From: Escherichia coli
Lineage (GTDB): Bacteria; Pseudomonadota; Gammaproteobacteria; Enterobacterales; Enterobacteriaceae
DNA: 64,000 nucleotides
NCBI RefSeq assembly: GCF_041248615.1
Contig: NZ_CP158426.1
Strand: one strand, 5' to 3'
In this document: one piece after another, positions 285 to 33,711 of the stretch
Numbering within the stretch: the first letter of the stretch is position 1
Layout: each line of letters starts with the position of its first letter
Translations under genes and position numbers: made by a program
The notes under the pieces: generated by a model
Database searches by the model: none
Seen by the model: only the letters and a program-made list of their open reading frames with translations
Told to the model about the DNA's origin: nothing

Positions 285-3029
285 TCAGAGTGCCTGAGCC
301 AGGTAAGTATCCAGCCATTCATGGGGCTGCATTCCTTCCCGGTAGAGAGAGTCGAAGATTTCCAGGTTGTCGGCGCTGCCGCTCATGACTTTTGTGTACC
401 TGCCGATCCCGGAAAGATCGAGCGTCACACGTGCAGCAAAACGCTTTATGTCGCCACGTCTAAATTGATTTTTTACCACTACGTACTGACGGGCCTGAGG
501 ATCCAGGGCTTTCACGACGTCGAACACTTCCGGCTCAAACTTCATTCCGTCGACATAGTGTTCCCTGTCAGCACTGGGGTTGGCTGCCAGGATCTGCGTG
601 CCGCACTGCTCAATCACGGCAGGCGCAATTTCATCCCTGATGATCTCCGCCGGGGACTGTGTTCCAACAACCAGCATCCCGTTTAGCTTGCGGATAGTTT
701 TCAGTCGGTTATAGGCGAAATCCTTAAAAACCGGATCCCGTAGCCATTTCCAGAACTCATCCATGAAGATAACCAGTCGACGTCCGTCGAGTAGGCTGGT
801 AATGCGGTACAGCAGATAAAAGGAGATCGGTGCGCAGATATTCGTATCGTCAAGAAACTCTGTGCCGTCAATGCCAAAGTTATCGCAGCGACTGATATCG
901 AAGGTGTCTGATGCGTTATCAAACACCCAGCCAAACTCGCCACCCTGCGCCCACTGTGACAGGCGAATACTCAGGCCATTCTCCTGGGCTTCTCGGGTCG
1001 CAGGCTCCGGAAGATTCTCCAGTAAACGGGTGATCCCATGAATACGGTACTGTGGTTCATTACCGATCACCGCCAGTATGGCATCATTTAGACGTCGTTC
1101 ATTGCGGGGCGTGATGGTCGCACCGTTACGCGTACACAGCAGTTTCATCAGCTGACTGATAAAACTGATATTGCGTTTCGTGGGCGATAGCGAAAATGGG
1201 TTCCACCCGGTGGGCTCTCCATGTGTAATACGGTAATAACGGCCTTGCAATGCCCGGATATTCATTTCAGCGCCACGATCCTTATCCAGATAAACGGTTG
1301 TCAGTCGTTTGGTTTTTGCGTCGGGAGAAAAACTCTCCGTACGGCTATATTTCTGCTGCATGTTTTCCAGAAACGTCATGAGCATGGTTTTACCCGAACC
1401 GTTGGTACCGAGAATGCAGGTACTGGCTGGATTCTTCTCGTTGAATTCATCCTTATCCGCCAGCGTATTGTGAAGGTTCAGATAGTATCCATCCCCTGAT
1501 GGGGCACGCAGTAAGGCCATCGCATCCCCCCAGGGCGCATTATCGCGCTTGCCGGGATAGAAATTGTGTAGCGAAGCCAGCTCGACAAAATTCTGACTGC
1601 TCAGCTCACCCTTGCGGGGCCGCAAATGATAATTGCCAGGCAGTTGCGCCATATACCCGGCTGAAAGAGAAAGCGCGGCGGGAACCGATATAATGCCGAG
1701 GTTGTTCAGGGCATTGCTGATTTCGCTGGTATCGGCTACCAGACTATCCAGCGTCTGGGAAAACACCATGATGGAAAAATGGTGTTTTCCATACGCAATT
1801 TTTCCCGATGTCAGCAGGTCAAGCGCCACATCCAGATCCAGCCGCTGAGACACCGCATCATCATCTGAACTCATTAACAGACGTCGGGTGCGTTTGATGG
1901 CCTTCCGGGCTTCTTCCCGTGACATGCAGGTGTAGGACTGTGTGATGACATAATCACAGGGGGCATAAAGCAGAGAATCCATCATTCCAGTTGCTGTTTC
2001 TTCAGGGAACTCTTTAACTTCCAGACCCCGGAAATACTGGGTGCCGCCGGTATGGTTTATCTGTCCAGACTCCCCGGAGAAAAACAGCGCCGCCGATCCC
2101 ATGACGGAATATGCAGGAGCACGGGTGACGCGGATCCTGCGCCATTGGTGCGTCAAGAGATACTCGTAAAAGGATAACTGGGAGGAGAATACCGCCTGTT
2201 CTTCGCTGAAAGTACCAAGAGAGTGTGCGGCGTAGCGTGACAGAGCGGTATCGAGGGTACCTTTAATTTCCAGCATCCCCTGCAACACACCGTCAAGCTC
2301 TTTCAGTTTCTGGCCGTCTTTCATACGCCGGTGTCCGGCTTTTTCCAGACTGGCAAAAGGGCGGTAGCAGGCAGTCAGGAACAAGCGGTTACGGCGAAAC
2401 GGGTTAGCCTCCAGCGAGGCATAATACAGACGGCTGACTTCATCAGCGTAAGGGTTGCCGGATACCTTATGTAGCGAATCGGTAAATGGCTCCCTTACGT
2501 TATGGATATAGAAGGTGACCGGCATCCCCTCGAAAGAGCGGATAATTCCGTGCAACTGGTTACGGTCAATATTGAGCGTTTCTTCTGATTCACAATCGAA
2601 CGGAGTGCCCGTCAGTTCCCAGGTACAGTAGAGGTCACTATTGGGTGAGCGGACGACATGTTGATGAATATGCGATGAATACGGAATGTATTTCCTGAGC
2701 GTGGCACTCTGATTCAATTTCATGACGTTGAGAAACTCCGTGATATCAACAGCATCATGCTCAATGGGCATAAATGCTGTTGCGCCAAATAGACGGTTTG
2801 CCGCAGGTTTTCCTCTTGCCCTGAGCCAGACGGCTATCAGGCTGAACCGCATGGGTTCATTCTTGGTAAGCGATTTCATCAGCAGAAATTCAATCGGGAG
2901 TAGGGCGAGGAAAGCGACGGAGGTCCAGACAGCAATGATGATGGTGATACCCGTGACAGCCAGTAGAGGCACCATCGGCACTCCCCATAGTGCCGCCGGA
3001 CGTCTCATTGCCTTAAGCAGCTTTGCCAT
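285..3029 (-). CDS. virB4: VirB3-VirB4 fusion, T4SS ATPase
   Basis: 914-aa ORF; N-terminal membrane segment (VirB3-like), Walker A GTNGSGKT, CagE/TrbE/VirB4-like length and layout. Confidence 0.85.
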   Translation of the reverse strand: MAKLLKAMRRPAALWGVPMVPLLAVTGITIIIAVWTSVAFLALLPIEFLLMKSLTKNEPMRFSLIAVWLRARGKPAANRLFGATAFMPIEHDAVDITEFLNVMKLNQSATLRKYIPYSSHIHQHVVRSPNSDLYCTWELTGTPFDCESEETLNIDRNQLHGIIRSFEGMPVTFYIHNVREPFTDSLHKVSGNPYADEVSRLYYASLEANPFRRNRLFLTACYRPFASLEKAGHRRMKDGQKLKELDGVLQGMLEIKGTLDTALSRYAAHSLGTFSEEQAVFSSQLSFYEYLLTHQWRRIRVTRAPAYSVMGSAALFFSGESGQINHTGGTQYFRGLEVKEFPEETATGMMDSLLYAPCDYVITQSYTCMSREEARKAIKRTRRLLMSSDDDAVSQRLDLDVALDLLTSGKIAYGKHHFSIMVFSQTLDSLVADTSEISNALNNLGIISVPAALSLSAGYMAQLPGNYHLRPRKGELSSQNFVELASLHNFYPGKRDNAPWGDAMALLRAPSGDGYYLNLHNTLADKDEFNEKNPASTCILGTNGSGKTMLMTFLENMQQKYSRTESFSPDAKTKRLTTVYLDKDRGAEMNIRALQGRYYRITHGEPTGWNPFSLSPTKRNISFISQLMKLLCTRNGATITPRNERRLNDAILAVIGNEPQYRIHGITRLLENLPEPATREAQENGLSIRLSQWAQGGEFGWVFDNASDTFDISRCDNFGIDGTEFLDDTNICAPISFYLLYRITSLLDGRRLVIFMDEFWKWLRDPVFKDFAYNRLKTIRKLNGMLVVGTQSPAEIIRDEIAPAVIEQCGTQILAANPSADREHYVDGMKFEPEVFDVVKALDPQARQYVVVKNQFRRGDIKRFAARVTLDLSGIGRYTKVMSGSADNLEIFDSLYREGMQPHEWLDTYLAQAL

Positions 3030-3039
3030 AGATAACCTC

Positions 3040-3333
3040 TCAGCTCATCAGCAGTGCGCCGATTTCACTGCCTCCACCAATCAGGATGCCGCCAATGATG
3101 ATGTAGGCGCACTGGGACAGGCTTTCGCCTTTCCAGAGTGTCTTGTAACCTACCCAGATCACGGCCACGGTAATGGTGATGGCCGCCAGGCCATTAAGGC
3201 CGGTGGCGACTTTTTCCATCACGGTATTTGCGCGTTGAAAGCCATCGGCAAAAACCGGAGGTACAGAACAAACGATGAGTGCAAATGCGGAAACATGACT
3301 GAAAGCGGCCTTAAGTTTGCAGCAAAGTGTCAT
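3040..3333 (-). CDS. virB2: VirB2-like pilin
   Basis: 97-aa ORF with signal-like N-terminus and two hydrophobic segments, placed between virB1 and virB3/4. Confidence 0.55.
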   Translation of the reverse strand: MTLCCKLKAAFSHVSAFALIVCSVPPVFADGFQRANTVMEKVATGLNGLAAITITVAVIWVGYKTLWKGESLSQCAYIIIGGILIGGGSEIGALLMS

Positions 3334-4088
3334 TATTCTTTCTCCTCACGGGGTGACAGGGAGAGGCTCCGGCGCAATGACGGCGTAGAGATCTTTTCTA
3401 TGGCAATTTTCTTCTGGCGGAATTTTGAGGGGACGCCACGAACCACGCCCTTCGGCCAGATCACGCAGGGACGTAACTGGTCACCTGCAGGCGTAGGCTT
3501 CAGGAACGGCGGGGGTGTCAATTTATCCTCGTGGGTTCCGGGTACGGCATAGTGGGGAGCAGCAGCGTAACCGATTCGTTGCACATAGCTGGTTCCGGAA
3601 AAAGCCGCTTCCGGCTGTTCTCCGGTACGGAAATTGCCGGAGTAGTAGCAACTCAGTGCTCTTTTCAGCGAGCCGCCGCGTCGGTAACAGTCGTTGAGGA
3701 TGTGTTCGAAAACAGACAAATTGGTACAGGGATCAAGCAGCTCAGAGGCTGTCACACCGTAATGATGGAAATTGGTGCTGGTAATTTGCATCAGCCCCAC
3801 AGAATAACGGCGGCTCTGCGCCATAAGGCGACCTATGATTCGCTCGGCTCTTTCCCGGCTGGTGGGCTGATGAGAAATGATTTTATTGTGACCGAAGGTG
3901 CCTGAGCCCTTTGGGATAATTTCGGCGATCGCATAAGGGTTAAAATTGGACTCCACCCTTACGACGTCGAGTGCTGTGGACGGATGAATGCTGGTGGCAC
4001 ACTGCATGGCCACCGCCAGAAAGGCAGATGTGGAAAGCATAGTAGCCTCGGGAATGCGGGCAGCGTACATAGCCAAAGAACCATGCAT
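3333..4088 (-). CDS. virB1: VirB1-like lytic transglycosylase
   Basis: 251-aa ORF with SLT-type motifs (VESNFNPYA, GLMQI); first gene of the virB cluster; true start may be internal. Confidence 0.7.
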   Translation of the reverse strand: MHGSLAMYAARIPEATMLSTSAFLAVAMQCATSIHPSTALDVVRVESNFNPYAIAEIIPKGSGTFGHNKIISHQPTSRERAERIIGRLMAQSRRYSVGLMQITSTNFHHYGVTASELLDPCTNLSVFEHILNDCYRRGGSLKRALSCYYSGNFRTGEQPEAAFSGTSYVQRIGYAAAPHYAVPGTHEDKLTPPPFLKPTPAGDQLRPCVIWPKGVVRGVPSKFRQKKIAIEKISTPSLRRSLSLSPREEKE

Positions 4089-19012: not shown

Positions 19013-19057
19013 AAATTCAATCACTTACACATCATTAAGTCAGTGACAAAAATCACA

Positions 19058-19090
19058 CTTGGAATTACTTGGAATATTTTCTTGGAATAT
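19058..19090. repeat. Three direct CTTGGAAT repeats in the attL arm (putative Int/Xis arm sites)
   Basis: CTTGGAATTACTTGGAATATTTTCTTGGAATATTTTC overlapping the int 3' end. Confidence 0.4.
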
Positions 19091-20090
19091 TTTCAGGTAA
19101 CGGGACATCAAGTGTTGGTGAAACTTTAACCTTCCTGTCATAGATTAGCACTTGCCCTTCGGTTTTGTGACCAGAGAAAAGTTGCTTATCCCGGCTGCTT
19201 CCTTCATAGTCTGAAATTCCTTTCGCCTTCAGATCATGAAAGGTGAAGTCGGTTAAAATACCTGAAATTTTTCCAGCACGATTTCTTGCATCTACCCACA
19301 TTTCGTTAAAGCCTTTGTACATATATCGGTTGCCGTATTGATTGCTGATCACATAGGCAGATTTTGGTAACTGTTTTGCTTTTTCGATCGCTGCCTGTAA
19401 TCGTGGACTCCATGCTTTTATCTGTTTTTTTCCGGTTTTCCCTTGCTGGATGAATATCCCGTCGTTTCCAATCTGTTCCCATTTCAGCGATAACACATCG
19501 GAAACCCTCGCTGCACACAGATAGGCAATTTCCATTGCGATAAAAACAGGAAGAGGTGCAACGCTTAATACTGCCTGGTATTCTTTGTCGGTTACATATC
19601 GTTCGCGGTTTTTGGCCTTGAATTTACTTACACCTGCACATGGGTTAGCCTTCACGTACCCTCGCTCATACCCCCAACTGTAAACACGGGACATACTGCT
19701 TTTTTCATGGTTGGCTTGCGTTTTACTCTGCTCCCCTCTTTTGTCCATGTATCGACGGATGTGTTCTGGTTTTATGGAATCCGCTGGTACCTTACCGAAT
19801 ACGGCAAGCAACTTTTTTTGATGTTGCAGATAATCTTTTTGTGTTCTTGGACTAAGGTCACTGTAATAGGCGCTGGCGAGGAATTTTTCCCACAAGCGAC
19901 CGAATGTCATTGCACGATCGCGATTATTTACAGTTTCCTCATACTTTTTCCATAAAGCAGCTAAACCATCCTTGATGGCGGTTAGTGTGACAGATTCTCT
20001 GGATGTTGGTTTCCATACATAACTATATTTATTTGGGTATACATTTGGAGGTAATTTTTCGTGTTCAGGATTTTTCCTTCGTCTTCCCAT
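19065..20090 (-). CDS. Phage tyrosine integrase
   Basis: 341-aa ORF adjacent to attL; C-terminal catalytic region with conserved R...H..R...Y spacing. Confidence 0.9.
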   Translation of the reverse strand: MGRRRKNPEHEKLPPNVYPNKYSYVWKPTSRESVTLTAIKDGLAALWKKYEETVNNRDRAMTFGRLWEKFLASAYYSDLSPRTQKDYLQHQKKLLAVFGKVPADSIKPEHIRRYMDKRGEQSKTQANHEKSSMSRVYSWGYERGYVKANPCAGVSKFKAKNRERYVTDKEYQAVLSVAPLPVFIAMEIAYLCAARVSDVLSLKWEQIGNDGIFIQQGKTGKKQIKAWSPRLQAAIEKAKQLPKSAYVISNQYGNRYMYKGFNEMWVDARNRAGKISGILTDFTFHDLKAKGISDYEGSSRDKQLFSGHKTEGQVLIYDRKVKVSPTLDVPLPENIPRKYSK

Positions 20091-23432: not shown

Positions 23433-23490
23433 AAAAAGGGCGGCAGAGCAGTCACGGAGTAAAACTGATACCGCCAAACGTCACCAGAAA
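23433..23490 (-). ncRNA. dicF: DicF small RNA
   Basis: Minus strand reads TTTCTGGTGACGTTTGGCGGTATCAGTTTTACTCCGTGACTGCTCTGCCGCCCTTTTT, matching DicF from memory, with intrinsic terminator; lies between ydfC and dicB. Confidence 0.7.
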
Positions 23491-24629: not shown

Positions 24630-25049
24630 CTATGATGCGTTTTGTGCTTTCTTTTTACGGATTTCTTCGTAGATCATATTGTAATACTGTTTTTTCTCTT
24701 CAAGAGTTTTTAATAAGTTATCCGCTTCACTTTCTGGCAGTTCGTCTAAGAGATCTAAAAAAATACGTTGTCGTGGCGTTAGAACCCTTGTTTCATAACT
24801 GGAGGCTGTGTTCGTTGATGATGAAACGATACCATCCATCCATCCCCGGGGTAACCCAAAGGACTCTTCGATAATCTCCACCATATCATCAGCGATCCGT
24901 TTTTTTCCCTTTTTCCCCTCTGGGTACAACATTCTTGATACATAAGAAGGCTCGCGCCCGATCTTTCTGGCCACGTTAACCGCTTTACCATCGCATTTCT
25001 CATCACGAATTTTGATGAGTTGCTGTCGTCTAAATTCATATTTGTCCAT
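24630..25049 (-). CDS. Prophage repressor (DicA/RacR-like HTH protein)
   Basis: 139-aa ORF divergent from cro-like gene; HTH AVNVARKIGREPSYVSRML; C-terminal LPESEADNLLKTLEE. Confidence 0.65.
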   Translation of the reverse strand: MDKYEFRRQQLIKIRDEKCDGKAVNVARKIGREPSYVSRMLYPEGKKGKKRIADDMVEIIEESFGLPRGWMDGIVSSSTNTASSYETRVLTPRQRIFLDLLDELPESEADNLLKTLEEKKQYYNMIYEEIRKKKAQNAS

Positions 25050-25149: not shown

Positions 25150-25431
25150 ATGGAAGAATTAAGAATATTTCTCAATTCTCTTTCGTCAGATGAACAGCGT
25201 ATGTTTGCATGCGAGTGTGGTACCAGCATCGGTTATCTAAGAAAGGCATTGAGTAAAGGTCAAGTGTTAGGGGCATCGTTATGTGTCCTTATTGAGCGAG
25301 CCAGTAATGGTGAAGTTACACGTCAGCAACTAAGGCCTTTTGATTGGATGAATATTTGGCCCGAGCTGGAAGATACCAAAACGTTAACACAACCACTTTC
25401 TAGGAGCTTGATTCATGAAAATCAAGCATGA
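25150..25431 (+). CDS. Cro-like HTH regulator (YdaS-family-like)
   Basis: 93-aa ORF, first rightward gene; HTH-like CGTSIGYLRKALSKGQ. Confidence 0.55.
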   Translation: MEELRIFLNSLSSDEQRMFACECGTSIGYLRKALSKGQVLGASLCVLIERASNGEVTRQQLRPFDWMNIWPELEDTKTLTQPLSRSLIHENQA

Positions 25432-25840
25432 ACACATCCGCATGGCGATGAATGCCTGGGCGCATCCGGACGGTGAAAAAGTTCCGGCAGCTGAAATAAC
25501 CAGGGCTTATTTTGAACTGGGTATGACGTTCCCAGAACTGTATGACGACAGCCATCCGGAAGCCCTGGCTCGCAATACCCAGAAAATTTTCCGCTGGGTA
25601 GAGAAAGACACCCCTGATGCAGTTGAAAAAATTCAGGCGTTGTTACCAGCGATCGAAAAGGCAATGCCACCTTTGCTGGTGGCCAGAATGCGCAGCCACA
25701 GTTCAGCTTATTTTCGGGAACTGGTGGAGACGCGGGAGCGACTGGTGAGAGACGCTGATGATTTTGTCGCAGTGGCAATCGCCGGTTTCAATCAGATGAA
25801 CCGTGGTGGCCCGGCAGGAAATGCTGTGGCAGTACATTGA
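25415..25840 (+). CDS. YdaT-like protein (cII-position gene)
   Basis: 141-aa ORF beginning MKIKHEHI, which I associate with YdaT. Confidence 0.5.
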   Translation: MKIKHEHIRMAMNAWAHPDGEKVPAAEITRAYFELGMTFPELYDDSHPEALARNTQKIFRWVEKDTPDAVEKIQALLPAIEKAMPPLLVARMRSHSSAYFRELVETRERLVRDADDFVAVAIAGFNQMNRGGPAGNAVAVH

Positions 25841-27000
25841 CTGACAATAGCCATATCGAATCGCTTCCGGCAACTCGTGAGGAAAAAGATTCGGTATCAG
25901 AAGAGGTGAGTATGGCTAACGCCTGGCTCAGATTATGGCATGACATGCCAAATGACCCTAAGTGGCGAACAATTGCCAGGGTGTCAGGGCAGCCAATTGC
26001 AACAGTGATGGCAGTGTATATCCACCTCCTGGTGAGCGCGTCACGAAATGTCACGCGAGGTCACATTGATGTCACGACAGAAGATTTGGCAAGTGCGCTC
26101 GACGTGACAGAAGAGGTAATTGATTCAATTTTGCAGACGATGCAGGGGCGGGTACTTGATGGTGATTTAATCACTGGATGGGAAAAACGCCAGGTGCTTA
26201 AAGAGGACAACGGCAATATTTCGCAAACCGCAAAATCTCCTGCAGAGCGCAAGAGGGCGCAGCGAGAGAGGGAAAGAAAGCGGGAACAAAATGGCGATTG
26301 TCACGGCGCGTCACGAAATGTCACGCACATGTCACGACGAGTCACGACAGATAAAGATACAGATAAAGATACAGATAAAGATACAGATACAGATCAAGAA
26401 GATCAAAACACTATGGTCCATGGCGTAAAAAACGCCACGAACCAGGCAGGGGATGTTCAGACCGTCAATCTTGGTCAGCCAGCAGGCACGACACCGGAAG
26501 CCGATTCAGCGTATGCGCTGAAAGCCGATTCGGGCGCTGTGCAGCAGGTGATGACCGCAAGGCCGGAGCAATCACACCAACTGCAGCAGCCTGAAGCCGA
26601 TTCCGCCATTCAGCGGGAAGCCGATCGGGTAGTCCCGGAAAACACCGGGCAGCCTGTGGGACGAGTAGATTATCCGGATGTGTTCGAACAGGTCTGGCGG
26701 GAATACCCGTTGCGTGCTGGGGCAAACCCGAAGAAATCCGCTTTCAGTGCTTGGAAGGCCAGATTACGCGAGGGGGTGCCACCAGAGGCCATGCTGGATG
26801 GTGTGAGGCGTTACGCAAGATACCTGGCGGCTACCGGGAAAACGGGAACGGAATTTGTTCAGCGAGCGACGACGTTTTTTGGACCGGACCGGAATTTTGA
26901 AAACCCCTGGTTTCTCCCGGTAAGCAGTACGAACAACCAGCGTTGTGTGAATCATATTTCTGAACCGGATACCGAAATTCCACCGGGCTTCAGGGGGTAA
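25837..27000 (+). CDS. Replication initiator (O-like N-terminus, DUF1376/YdaU-like C-terminus)
   Basis: 387-aa ORF; N-terminal ANAWLRLWHDMPNDPKWRTIARVSG; iteron arrays inside the coding sequence; DKDT repeats. Confidence 0.7.
   Translation: MTDNSHIESLPATREEKDSVSEEVSMANAWLRLWHDMPNDPKWRTIARVSGQPIATVMAVYIHLLVSASRNVTRGHIDVTTEDLASALDVTEEVIDSILQTMQGRVLDGDLITGWEKRQVLKEDNGNISQTAKSPAERKRAQRERERKREQNGDCHGASRNVTHMSRRVTTDKDTDKDTDKDTDTDQEDQNTMVHGVKNATNQAGDVQTVNLGQPAGTTPEADSAYALKADSGAVQQVMTARPEQSHQLQQPEADSAIQREADRVVPENTGQPVGRVDYPDVFEQVWREYPLRAGANPKKSAFSAWKARLREGVPPEAMLDGVRRYARYLAATGKTGTEFVQRATTFFGPDRNFENPWFLPVSSTNNQRCVNHISEPDTEIPPGFRG
26040..26385. repeat. Phage origin: two GTCACG iteron arrays plus 3x12-bp AT-rich repeats
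   Basis: GTCACG at 26040, 26050, 26060 (GTCACA), 26071 and at 26300, 26310, 26320, 26331, 26341 (10-11 bp phasing); GATAAAGATACA x3 at 26350-26385. Confidence 0.65.
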
Positions 27001-27040: not shown

Positions 27041-27463
27041 GTGGCAAAAGTTTTTACACAAGAAGAGCGGGAAAAAATTAAAGGGCAGGTTCTTGAACTC
27101 GTACGCCAGAGTGGGCGCGAGACGTTACGACAACTGGAAGCTAAAACTGGGGCAACAAGATATCTGATGAGCGTTCTGGCCAGAGAGCTGGTTGCCAGTG
27201 GCGATGTATACAACTCTGGTTACGGGTTATTCCCGTCTGAACAGGCGCGTAAGGACTGGCAAAATGCCCGTAAAAAGCTCTCAAGGGCAAAGCTGAAGAA
27301 ACCATCTGCGGTTGATCCGGACCTTATCTGGTCATTACCTGATGGAGAAATACGTCGTTACGACAGGCGTCATAATATAATTTGTACTGAGTGTCGTAAA
27401 AGCGAAGTTATGCAGCGGATATTGTCGTTTTATCAGGGGGATGTTCGGTATTTTTTGAAGTGA
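27041..27463 (+). CDS. Hypothetical protein, possible winged-helix
   Basis: 140-aa ORF after the replication gene; C-terminal CxxC; function unclear. Confidence 0.45.
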   Translation: MAKVFTQEEREKIKGQVLELVRQSGRETLRQLEAKTGATRYLMSVLARELVASGDVYNSGYGLFPSEQARKDWQNARKKLSRAKLKKPSAVDPDLIWSLPDGEIRRYDRRHNIICTECRKSEVMQRILSFYQGDVRYFLK

Positions 27464-27701: not shown

Positions 27702-29036
27702 TTATGATACCGATAAAAACTTTGTTGCAATTTCTGCTGCCGTTTTCTCCATGCTGGGATATACAGTGCTTTCGGATATATTAAGCTGCGCCAGCTCTTC
27801 CAGAATTTTATTTTTGTTCGCTATCTCCACTCTGTTAAGAGGAAACTCAGCATCTGTTTCCGGTAAAATGGGATCAAGTCCGAACAGAAGAAAAGCTCCT
27901 GCCTGAGATTGTATGCGTTCATTATTTATTTTAGCCTTAAGGAAAACAACTTTCCTTAAGTCATCAGGAATTATTCTGTTTCTGAAATATGATTTTTCAT
28001 TCTGTATAAGGTCTGCAAGTTTATCCGTGAGTTCAGATAACTCCATATTACCTTTTCTGGAATCAGAGGAGGACAATTTTTCCAACTCTTCGTAAGATAA
28101 AAGTGATAAGTTTGCTATACAGCTCACTGTATCTGAGTCGAAATATTTAATTTTCTTTCTATTTGTTGAAAACGAAATCACCTGTCCGTTTTCATCGGGG
28201 TTCGAACAGCAAGCAAAATATAATGCTATCAGTGGGTTAGATGTAATGTCTAAGAGTCTTGTAGGCAAGCCATAATGCTGCATGCGGACAAGTTTATCAA
28301 TCGTAAATTTATCCTCCTTAAATTCATTTGGTCTTGCGCTGAGTATTTCACGTACTAAATCAGATTCTGAAGCAAGATGCCTGTACGTCCCGTTTTGATT
28401 TTTTCTGTAAAGAGAGGGGACAAGCTCATATGAGCTTTTAGAGTGTCCACGATAAAAGGTAATGAGACCATCACGAAAGTTTTTCTTTATGAAATTAAGA
28501 TAATCTATAATATTCTCGACTACTGGGTATGTTTGTTTTTTTAATTTGATTGTACCTTTCAGTTGGCTATTTTGTTTGTTTAAACCAAGTGATTCCAGAA
28601 CAATATTTAAATCCTTATTTTTTACTGCCCAATGTGTACGACTTAACCCGAAAGATCCTAGCCCTAGGGTTTCTTTATATAATGTCGTTTGGGGATTCGT
28701 TATTTCTCCAAAATTATGATTAATCTTGAAAGAAAATAAAATATCGCCACCATCTTTACGTAAGTTTCTTATTTCCCCAAGTCTGATCCTGATGTACTTG
28801 TTTGTATCATATTCATCATCTTTTGTATAAGTTTCGGTCATGAACAATACTGGTAGCTTGGCGAGTTCTCTTAAGGTATCGGGTCTTATTGGTGTTAATT
28901 TACTGTAAATATCGCTTGGGGTGCCTTCCAGCATGCGGGACATCGAGAATCTTTCCTCGCCTTCTTTAAGCCCAGGGTCCATACACGGCCAGCGGTCAAA
29001 AACGTCCGGTTCTCCGGCCATGATTAAGCTAAACAT
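27702..29036 (-). CDS. FRG-domain protein (candidate anti-phage/abortive-infection moron)
   Basis: 444-aa ORF on the opposite strand to neighbours, in ~1.9 kb AT-rich block; motifs FYRGHS, LVPSLYR, QHYGLPTRLLDITSNPLIALYFA fit the FRG domain as I recall it; palindromic hairpin at its 3' end. Confidence 0.6.
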   Translation of the reverse strand: MFSLIMAGEPDVFDRWPCMDPGLKEGEERFSMSRMLEGTPSDIYSKLTPIRPDTLRELAKLPVLFMTETYTKDDEYDTNKYIRIRLGEIRNLRKDGGDILFSFKINHNFGEITNPQTTLYKETLGLGSFGLSRTHWAVKNKDLNIVLESLGLNKQNSQLKGTIKLKKQTYPVVENIIDYLNFIKKNFRDGLITFYRGHSKSSYELVPSLYRKNQNGTYRHLASESDLVREILSARPNEFKEDKFTIDKLVRMQHYGLPTRLLDITSNPLIALYFACCSNPDENGQVISFSTNRKKIKYFDSDTVSCIANLSLLSYEELEKLSSSDSRKGNMELSELTDKLADLIQNEKSYFRNRIIPDDLRKVVFLKAKINNERIQSQAGAFLLFGLDPILPETDAEFPLNRVEIANKNKILEELAQLNISESTVYPSMEKTAAEIATKFLSVS

Positions 29037-29615: not shown

Positions 29616-29830
29616 TTGATTTTATATTGGCGAGGTGACGTGAGTTAAGTAGAATTGCTGCGGGTGCTTGAGGCTATCTGCCTCAGGCATGAACACCAAA
29701 GGCAGATAGAGAAAAGCCCCAGTTAACATTACGCGTCCTGCAAGACGCTTAACATTAATCTGAGGCTCAATCTATGAACGGCAAATCTAGGTTAGCCTCT
29801 TACGTGCCGAAAGGCAAGGAGAAGCAGGCT

Positions 29831-29986
29831 ATGAAGCAGCAAAAGGCGATGTTAATCGCCCTGATCGTCATCTGTTTAACCGTCATTGTGACGGCACTGG
29901 TAACGAGGAAAGACCTCTGCGAGGTACGAATCCGAACCGGCCAGACGGAGGTCGCTGTCTTCACAGCTTACGAACCTGAGGAGTAA
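29831..29986 (+). CDS. hokD: Hok/Gef-family type I toxin (HokD-like), with overlapping mok frame from 29774
   Basis: MKQQKAMLIALIVICLTVIVTALVTRKDLCEVRIRTGQTEVAVFTAYEPEE; upstream leader stem-loop CTATCTGCCT...AGGCAGATAG. Confidence 0.85.
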   Translation: MKQQKAMLIALIVICLTVIVTALVTRKDLCEVRIRTGQTEVAVFTAYEPEE

Positions 29987-33295: not shown

Positions 33296-33401
33296 GTGCC
33301 ACTTATCTCGGATAGACATGGTGAATGCGCTAGTGGAGGAGATAAGGGTGATTTTTGAATGCTTGCAACATTGATTTCGTAACGTTATTATCCTGCGCCC
33401 G

Positions 33402-33477
33402 GCCCTTTAGCTCAGTGGTGAGAGCGAGCGACTCATAATCGCCAGGTCGCTGGTTCAAATCCAGCAAGGGCCACCAG
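33402..33477 (+). tRNA. tRNA with CAT anticodon (Met or Ile2, ileZ-like)
   Basis: GGCCCTTTAGCTCAGTGGTGAGAGC...CTCATAATCGC...GGTTCAAATCCAGCAAGGGCCACCA. Confidence 0.8.
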
Positions 33478-33478
33478 C

Positions 33479-33555
33479 CGCCACTAGCTCATCAGGAAAG
33501 AGCGTCAACCCTTTAAGTTGAGTGTGCGAGGTTCGAGTCCCCGGTGGCGGTCCAG
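33479..33555 (+). tRNA. tRNA-like gene, anticodon ambiguous (loop CCTTTAA, nominal TTT)
   Basis: 7-bp acceptor stem CCGCCAC/GTGGCGG, D and T arms present, CCA end; atypical C at position 33; T-stem has one A-C mismatch. Confidence 0.5.
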
Positions 33556-33556
33556 T

Positions 33557-33633
<77 letters not shown>

Positions 33634-33635
33634 AT

Positions 33636-33711
<76 letters not shown>

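Follow-up and report, generated by a model that had tools for sequence, protein, structure and literature searches.

Two arrays of GTCACG repeats and an adjoining A-rich tract probably form the origin from which a lambda-like E. coli prophage replicates vegetatively, located inside the coding sequence of its own initiator gene (rep). This reading, which was drawn from sequence comparison, is based on a clustering and phasing of the repeats far beyond chance, also when the protein sequence is taken as given. It is further based on the behavior of the repeated hexamer in related phages, where it co-varies with the N-terminal domain of the initiator, where both arrays change together, and where synonymous sites within the hexamers are frozen. 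The elements follow the order known from ori-lambda (PMC6022878) and SPP1 oriL (PMC5737612), with iterons ahead of an A-rich tract in the middle, linker-coding part of the gene. Finally, no gene for a helicase loader was found in 104 E. coli loci or in phage genome records such as Tritos, in contrast to the relatives L213, L214 and 75/02.

This kind of origin is already known, from the lambda origin in gene O and SPP1 oriL in gene 38. For the present sequence family, a literature search returned no paper on GTCACG iterons, and no binding or origin experiment on any member. The region offers a concrete, testable origin for a replication module that is very common in E. coli and Shigella prophages. 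One cluster of Rep proteins at 90% identity holds 5786 sequences, and in some genomes the RefSeq label for rep is still "hypothetical protein".

The window (the whole stretch of DNA that was analyzed, 64,000 nucleotides) contains this region within a lambda-like prophage inserted beside tRNA-Ser and mtfA, and the region is 100% identical to that of strain SJC33 and several other genomes. The listed gene order begins with the repressor gene (24630-25049, minus strand), followed on the plus strand by a cro-like YdaS gene (25150-25431), a cII-like YdaT gene (25415-25840), rep (25912-27000, 362 aa) and a gene of the DUF977 type, also named LygF or 'Ren-like' (27041-27463; Pfam PF06163, E=2e-29; PHROG 142). 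The start of rep, with the Shine-Dalgarno sequence GAGGTG, agrees with that of RefSeq WP_021549782.1 from an identical genome. Judging from this gene order, with the cro-like and cII-like genes upstream of rep, early rightward transcription would pass through the origin. The 140-aa ORF that had been noted after the initiator gene is present and corresponds to the DUF977 protein, the N-terminus of which is DNA-binding-like (PHROG 2391). Beyond it follow an FRG-domain gene on the opposite strand, hok/sok, DUF968, RusA and Q.

Repeat arrays, A-rich tract and palindrome within rep

Exact copies of GTCACG start on the plus strand at positions 26040, 26050, 26071, 26300, 26310, 26320, 26331 and 26341. 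They form array 1 (26040-26076), with spacings of 10, 10 and 11 bp, and array 2 (26300-26346), with spacings of 10, 10, 11 and 10 bp. The preliminary description had listed four copies in the first array and five in the second, at a helical phasing of 10-11 bp. The phasing and the five exact copies of array 2 were recovered as described, whereas in array 1 only three copies are exact, and the remaining one, at 26060, is the variant GTCACA. That description had missed a single inverted copy (26103-26108, minus strand), which lies inside GACGTGACA, the coding sequence for D-V-T, and also a palindrome at 26414-26444. In total, rep contains nine direct iterons, spaced at 10-11 bp, and one inverted iteron.

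Nine of the 30 GTCACG sites in the window are packed into 307 bp, where 0.12 would be expected (Poisson P about 1e-14), and no second cluster occurs anywhere in the window outside the rep arrays. When the synonymous codons of rep were permuted with the protein held fixed, the hexamer appeared on average 2.4 times and at most six times in 2000 trials, against the nine copies observed. The hexamers start at codon offsets 2, 0, 1, 0 in array 1 and 1, 2, 0, 2, 0 in array 2. Since all three reading frames are used, the repeat is one of DNA and not of peptide. A 19-bp block, GCGTCACGAAATGTCACGC, is found exactly at both 26038 and 26308, in frame, and encodes ASRNVT both times. The SRNVT peptide segments to which the preliminary description had drawn attention are therefore encoded as it said, but are a by-product of the DNA repeat. 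A nearby repeat provides a contrast: GAAGCCGAT occurs four times at spacings of 24, 72 and 24, in frame, and encodes EADS. In its more general form, (G/A)AAGCCGAT, the four in-frame copies (26497-26625, same spacings) encode EADS or KADS, and a similar repeat is present in 75/02 Stx. This looks like a peptide-level repeat within a disordered linker.

The iteron core is an asymmetric hexamer arranged in direct repeats, without the 18-19 bp dyad iterons of the lambda type. DnaA boxes were searched for in 25900-27000, and none was found at up to one mismatch; a DnaA-assisted model was dropped for this reason.

Directly 3' of array 2 lies the A-rich tract (26347-26410), a putative DNA unwinding element of 64 bp with 28% GC and hexamer units of GATAAA/GATACA; on its top strand A outnumbers T by 37 to 9. 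A counterpart tract is found in relatives, and in the more distant ones array 2 is followed by (T)AGATAAAGA and a purine-rich run. The three tandem 12-bp units reported earlier are indeed present within the tract, as GATAAAGATACA repeated three times at 26350-26385. Across E. coli prophages the length of the GATAAA/GATACA tract ranges from 12 to 48 bp; it is most often 24 bp, and is 42 bp here. The iteron count is constant at 4 + 5 across the same prophages. On this comparison the triple unit is an expansion specific to this strain, within a polymorphic hexamer repeat that has two units in most E. coli alleles, and slippage is a possible source of the exact number.

The A-rich tract is directly followed by the palindrome (26414-26444), which comprises 31 bp in the form TGGTCCATGGCGT-AAAAA-ACGCCACGAACCA, with arms of 13 bp, a loop of 5 nt and one arm mismatch in the copy of the window. 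75/02 Stx, L213 and L214, among them phages with other initiator N-termini, have kept it together with the C-terminal module, and variants of its arms remain paired (TGGTTC/GAACCA, GGTCC/GGACC). The conserved palindrome may complete the origin element, although its role is much less certain than the origin reading. A promoter and terminator scan remained at background level, with the palindrome as its sole useful product; on the minus strand it has some resemblance to a weak terminator.

Iterons and initiator modules in related phages

Rep is a mosaic protein: array 2 and the A-rich tract are flanked by two breaks in its homology to other initiators, at residues ~138 and ~164. Over residues 1-138 it shares about 70% identity with Pseudomonas phage initiators that have an unrelated C-terminus. 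Residues 164-362 match initiators of E. coli and Shigella phages (75/02 Stx, SfV, ST64B, Stx phages) that have unrelated N-termini.

For the comparison of iterons, relatives were retrieved by protein similarity only, independently of the iteron pattern. In Pseudomonas phage phita81A (N-terminal domain 73% identical) GTCACG occurs in 4 + 4 copies at the same two places, and the inverted copy and AGATAAAGATACAGA are kept; Aeromonas pAEv1818 (74%) likewise has GTCACG arrays at both places and the inverted copy. L213 and L214, which are related over the full length (45-47%), carry GTAACG arrays at both places. The hexamer is GCAACG (5 + 4) in Ralstonia phage Firinga (N-terminal domain 38% identical), and CGAACG (3 + 5) in ct2G2228, a metagenome-assembled phage from Manatee Spring (48% in this domain). 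Three more distant relatives (32-47% in this domain) have various iterons and the linker array only, and Mwe-JY25 (35% in this domain) has no clear iteron and no clear array. Array 2 was found at the equivalent position in 10 of the 11 relatives retrieved by protein. In initiators that have only the C-terminal half in common with Rep (75/02 Stx, SfV), GTCACG arrays are absent. Since the hexamer tracks the N-terminal domain and is missing where only the C-terminal half is shared, the repeat travels with this domain, and both arrays change together. The natural initiator-iteron pairs (GTCACG, GTAACG, GCAACG and CGAACG) would be suited to the study of how binding specificity changes.

A pattern-based scan detected more than 120 loci, but these are circular as evidence for iteron conservation, and the codon test was therefore redone on the protein-retrieved pairs. 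At conserved amino acids, codons are identical between Rep and phita81A at 10 of 10 iteron positions compared with 29 of 73 elsewhere (P=2.6e-4), and between Rep and pAEv1818 at 9 of 10 compared with 25 of 74 (P=1e-3). A larger test with nine sequences gave 0.91 for iterons against 0.39, values that are biased by the choice of loci through the iteron pattern itself. A protein-based scan of viral contigs returned only E. coli loci of 100% identity, and served for the copy-number counts.

Within the predicted winged-helix domain, array 1 encodes the last part of the helix at residues 29-45 and the loop at residues 46-55. The loop tolerates insertions, common variants having gained exactly 21 bp, i.e. 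two iterons and seven codons, and in another subfamily the array is placed in a different loop. The hexamer is retained even where the encoded peptide differs. Putative binding sites of a protein, inserted into the loop-coding parts of that protein's own gene, would represent an unusually clear overlap of DNA and protein constraint. Co-variation, concerted arrays and frozen synonymous sites argue for the lambda-like arrangement with different iterons that the preliminary description had proposed.

A search of plasmids for a minimal replicon of this type yielded only large records and two Pseudomonas elements of ~51 kb. The latter (CP137943.1 and CP124671.1, from P. aeruginosa, about 50.9 kb, filed as plasmids) carry an initiator of the phita81A type, and may be circular phage genomes or phage-plasmids.

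Rep domains and helicase loading

NCBI names Rep a 'phage replisome organizer', and PHROG 3729 ('replication initiation protein') covers the whole protein, with residues 1-362 aligned to profile positions 1-356 at E=7e-254. A Pfam search found no family at E<=0.01, the lambda O family (Phage_rep_O) included. The replisome-organizer N-terminal model (TIGR01714/PF09681), whose curated cut-off is 49.8 bits, aligned to aa 5-125 below this threshold, at a score of 15.4 (E=0.016). The repeats had been assigned to an O-like initiator ORF; their location inside the initiator gene is correct, but by these searches Rep does not belong to the lambda O family.

In an AlphaFold model for which 21 relatives were used, a domain of putative winged-helix fold was predicted with confidence at aa 4-97. 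After a basic helix (aa 110-126) the model has a long linker without order (aa 128-249), then a C-terminal domain of helices (aa 250-335), and it ends in a disordered tail (aa 339-362). The N-terminal domain with the putative winged-helix fold (aa 1-97, 25912-26202, plus strand) is the part that co-varies with the iteron sequence. Its third helix was predicted to be acidic, and in DnaD the matching domain oligomerizes rather than binds DNA. The basic helix (about aa 107-126, ERKRAQRERERKR; 26230-26289, plus strand) contains a motif conserved across the family (RQPKRED...ERKR.QRER), and is a candidate for the DNA-contacting arm in the predicted structure. The disordered interdomain linker is encoded by the part of rep that contains array 2, the A-rich tract and the palindrome. 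The helical C-terminal domain (26659-26916, plus strand; PHROG 1701, 26426, 270, 9327) is a shuffled module, common to initiators with different N-termini.

The last 20 residues of Rep (QRCVNHISEPDTEIPPGFRG; 26938-26997, plus strand) match the C-terminal tail of E. coli DnaT, primosomal protein I, with 14 of 20 residues identical to DnaT residues 160-179 (70%), a conserved form ...SEPD..IPPGFRG, and an alignment to positions 157-179 of the NCBIfam DnaT model. The likeness is limited to the tail: Pfam did not detect the DNA-binding domain of DnaT, a three-helix bundle (PF17948), in Rep, phmmer and BLASTP aligned the tail only, and the helical C-terminal domain has no match in DnaT. Sister initiators with the same N-terminus carry the whole PF17948.

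No loader of the DnaC or P type had been seen downstream of the initiator, and a search elsewhere agreed with this: the annotation of the whole prophage contains no DnaB, DnaC or P-like gene, and neither does that of the 13.7-kb early region of Tritos from integrase to Q. In all 104 E. coli loci with this type of Rep the next gene is DUF977, with no loader there. In relatives of the same C-terminal type (L213, L214, 75/02 Stx, Rac) rep is immediately followed by a DnaC-like gene. With other C-terminal types, the gene in this place is P-like or encodes either a DnaB-like helicase or a primase/helicase; in SfV a loader is absent too. With no loader encoded, and DnaC-like genes present in close relatives, the host DnaB-DnaC would have to serve, and the match of the tail to DnaT likewise suggests that the host loading machinery is used; the tail of Rep may dock onto host loading proteins.

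No role for the DnaT tail was found stated in the literature consulted, and how DnaT recruits DnaB-DnaC was still called unknown in a structural study of 2026 (PMC13377028). It is conceivable, albeit doubtful, that the 20-residue tail acts as a transferable motif for docking to helicase-loading machinery of the DnaC type or to PriA, through which a phage initiator without a loader plugs its origin complex into the DnaT-DnaC route of the host. If this were true, phage initiators having only the tail would mark the part of DnaT that recruits DnaB-DnaC. The loader-less layout with its DnaT-like tail lends itself to the study of host helicase recruitment. DnaT itself acts at forks marked by PriA/PriB and not at a sequence-specific origin (PMC13377028). 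The gene order in relatives, a rep with this tail followed by a dnaC-like gene, mirrors the host dnaT-dnaC operon (PMC5778457). In DopC, an O-like N-terminus is fused to the C-terminal motif of DnaT, and no iterons were found at dopC (PMC5509034).

Comparison with known origins and alternative explanations

In lambda, the iterons and then an AT-rich unwinding tract lie in the middle of gene O, the iterons are bound by the N-terminal part of O, and in-frame deletions within the AT-rich tract abolish ori but leave the protein functional; each iteron is 18-19 bp long and has internal dyad symmetry (PMC6022878). The present region shares with ori-lambda the layout of an origin in the middle of the initiator gene and, like it, lies downstream of cro and cII in the early right operon. 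Unlike ori-lambda, it has a direct 6-bp core that recurs every 10-11 bp; the copies are divided between two clusters, separated by about 260 bp, of which one lies in a domain-coding part. Rep is also without detectable Pfam similarity to the O family, and there is no P gene.

SPP1 oriL is located inside gene 38, where AB boxes bound by G38P adjoin an AT-rich unwinding element, and a 356-bp piece is sufficient in vitro (PMC5737612). As in SPP1, the origin would be embedded in the organizer gene, and Rep has the same NCBI family name; SPP1 differs in encoding a loader (G39P) and a helicase (G40P), in its Gram-positive host, and in that G38P belongs to pfam09524, to which Rep has no match. Short repeats in two groups, both recognized by one initiator, are also found in the SaPI ori and in P1 incC/incA, but there they lie outside the coding sequence of the initiator, and the initiators are unrelated.

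The Rac prophage of E. coli K-12 (ydaS-ydaT-ydaU-ydaV-ydaW) has the same flanking genes of the YdaS, YdaT and DUF977 types. Its YdaU ends in ...PDSAIPPGFRG (...VSLPDSAIPPGFRG), again a DnaT-like tail, and in the middle of ydaU (2620-3477 of the Rac record) direct and inverted repeats of the type TGTTCAA are followed by AATAAAGATACAGATAAAGAT, nearly the same A-rich element. Unlike Rep, YdaU has a DUF1376 N-terminus, the repeats are of the TGTTCAA type and not GTCACG, and a DnaC-like protein, YdaV, is encoded. The origin oriJ is active in Rac (PMC3945230). The primers that have been published for 'oriJ' amplify a piece within ydaV, about 0.7 kb from the ydaU repeats, and the region of repeats and A-rich element in ydaU is probably the origin region of Rac.

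After induction, rightward transcription would yield Rep, whose N-terminal part (putative winged helix and basic helix) would bind head-to-tail to one face of the DNA at both arrays. Given the distance of about 260 bp from one array to the other, the DNA may form a loop or wrap. The resulting strain would open the A-rich tract, for which the palindrome may offer a structured entry site, and the C-terminal domain with its DnaT-like tail would then recruit the helicase, i.e. the host DnaB-DnaC. Binding, looping, the role of the palindrome and the partner of the tail are much less certain than the origin reading. The points that speak against the latter are the acidic third helix, the lack of a DnaA box, a possibly defective prophage, and Mwe-JY25 with no clear array.

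Plasmids show a pattern of origin iterons plus separate control iterons, which the two arrays of the same iteron recall. It is unlikely, however, that the arrays are Rep sites for control only, i.e. for autorepression by a roadblock in the gene or for copy-number control by array pairing as in P1 incA, with the true origin elsewhere. Array 1 has no adjoining A-rich tract, and from the three distant relatives with the linker array only it may be accessory; behind array 2, on the other hand, there is in every case an A-rich tract with a purine skew, a standard sign of an unwinding element, and the window contains no other GTCACG cluster. A control role would in any case be compatible with origin function. 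Recognition of the hexamers by another protein instead of Rep, either the neighboring winged-helix protein of the DUF977 type or a host factor, appears very improbable. The constant position of DUF977 after rep in the 104 E. coli loci and its DNA-binding-like N-terminus are in its favor, but the iteron type follows the N-terminal domain of Rep. Moreover, arrays occur in Pseudomonas, Ralstonia and Aeromonas phages in which the annotated gene after rep is a helicase, primase/helicase or loader with no DUF977 listed, while DUF977 also follows the 75/02 Stx and Rac initiators, which have no GTCACG arrays.

The breaks in homology that flank array 2 and the A-rich tract, together with the several C-terminal modules joined to this N-terminus, would also fit a region that is mainly a recombination junction between initiator modules, with repeats kept for promoting module exchange. 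This explanation has a very slight probability: it accounts neither for the helical phasing, nor for the concerted change of the arrays, nor for the location of array 1 inside a domain, and junctions at origins, as among lambdoid O genes, are an expected by-product; it is also compatible with origin activity. Least probable is a coding feature with no DNA role, i.e. low-complexity peptide repeats arising from slippage. The hexamer units encoding DKDT vary in copy number like a microsatellite, and ASRNVT is encoded twice in frame, but codon permutation failed to reach the observed hexamer count and the hexamer is kept despite differing peptides. For the GTCACG arrays a peptide repeat was rejected on the use of all three frames and the frozen synonymous sites.

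Several other features were observed around the replication module. In the identical reference genome the integrase ORF (about 19040-20090 of the window) carries a frameshift according to the annotation, and the present copy of the prophage may therefore be defective or may not excise. The DicF small RNA (23438-23489, minus strand) lies close to dicB, ydfB and ydfC, which makes the left arm of the prophage Qin/Rac-like. Between the replication module and hok/sok, the minus strand encodes the FRG-domain protein of 444 aa (27702-29036), which belongs to a PHROG family without known function and may be a moron or a defense gene. It is followed by a toxin-antitoxin pair of the hok/sok type (29662-29986), in which the sok RNA (Rfam, 111.7 bits) overlaps a hokD-like ORF. 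Just downstream of the Q antiterminator gene, four tRNA genes are arranged in a row (33401-33707), and the RefSeq annotation of the identical genome assigns them to Ile, Lys, Thr and Gly.
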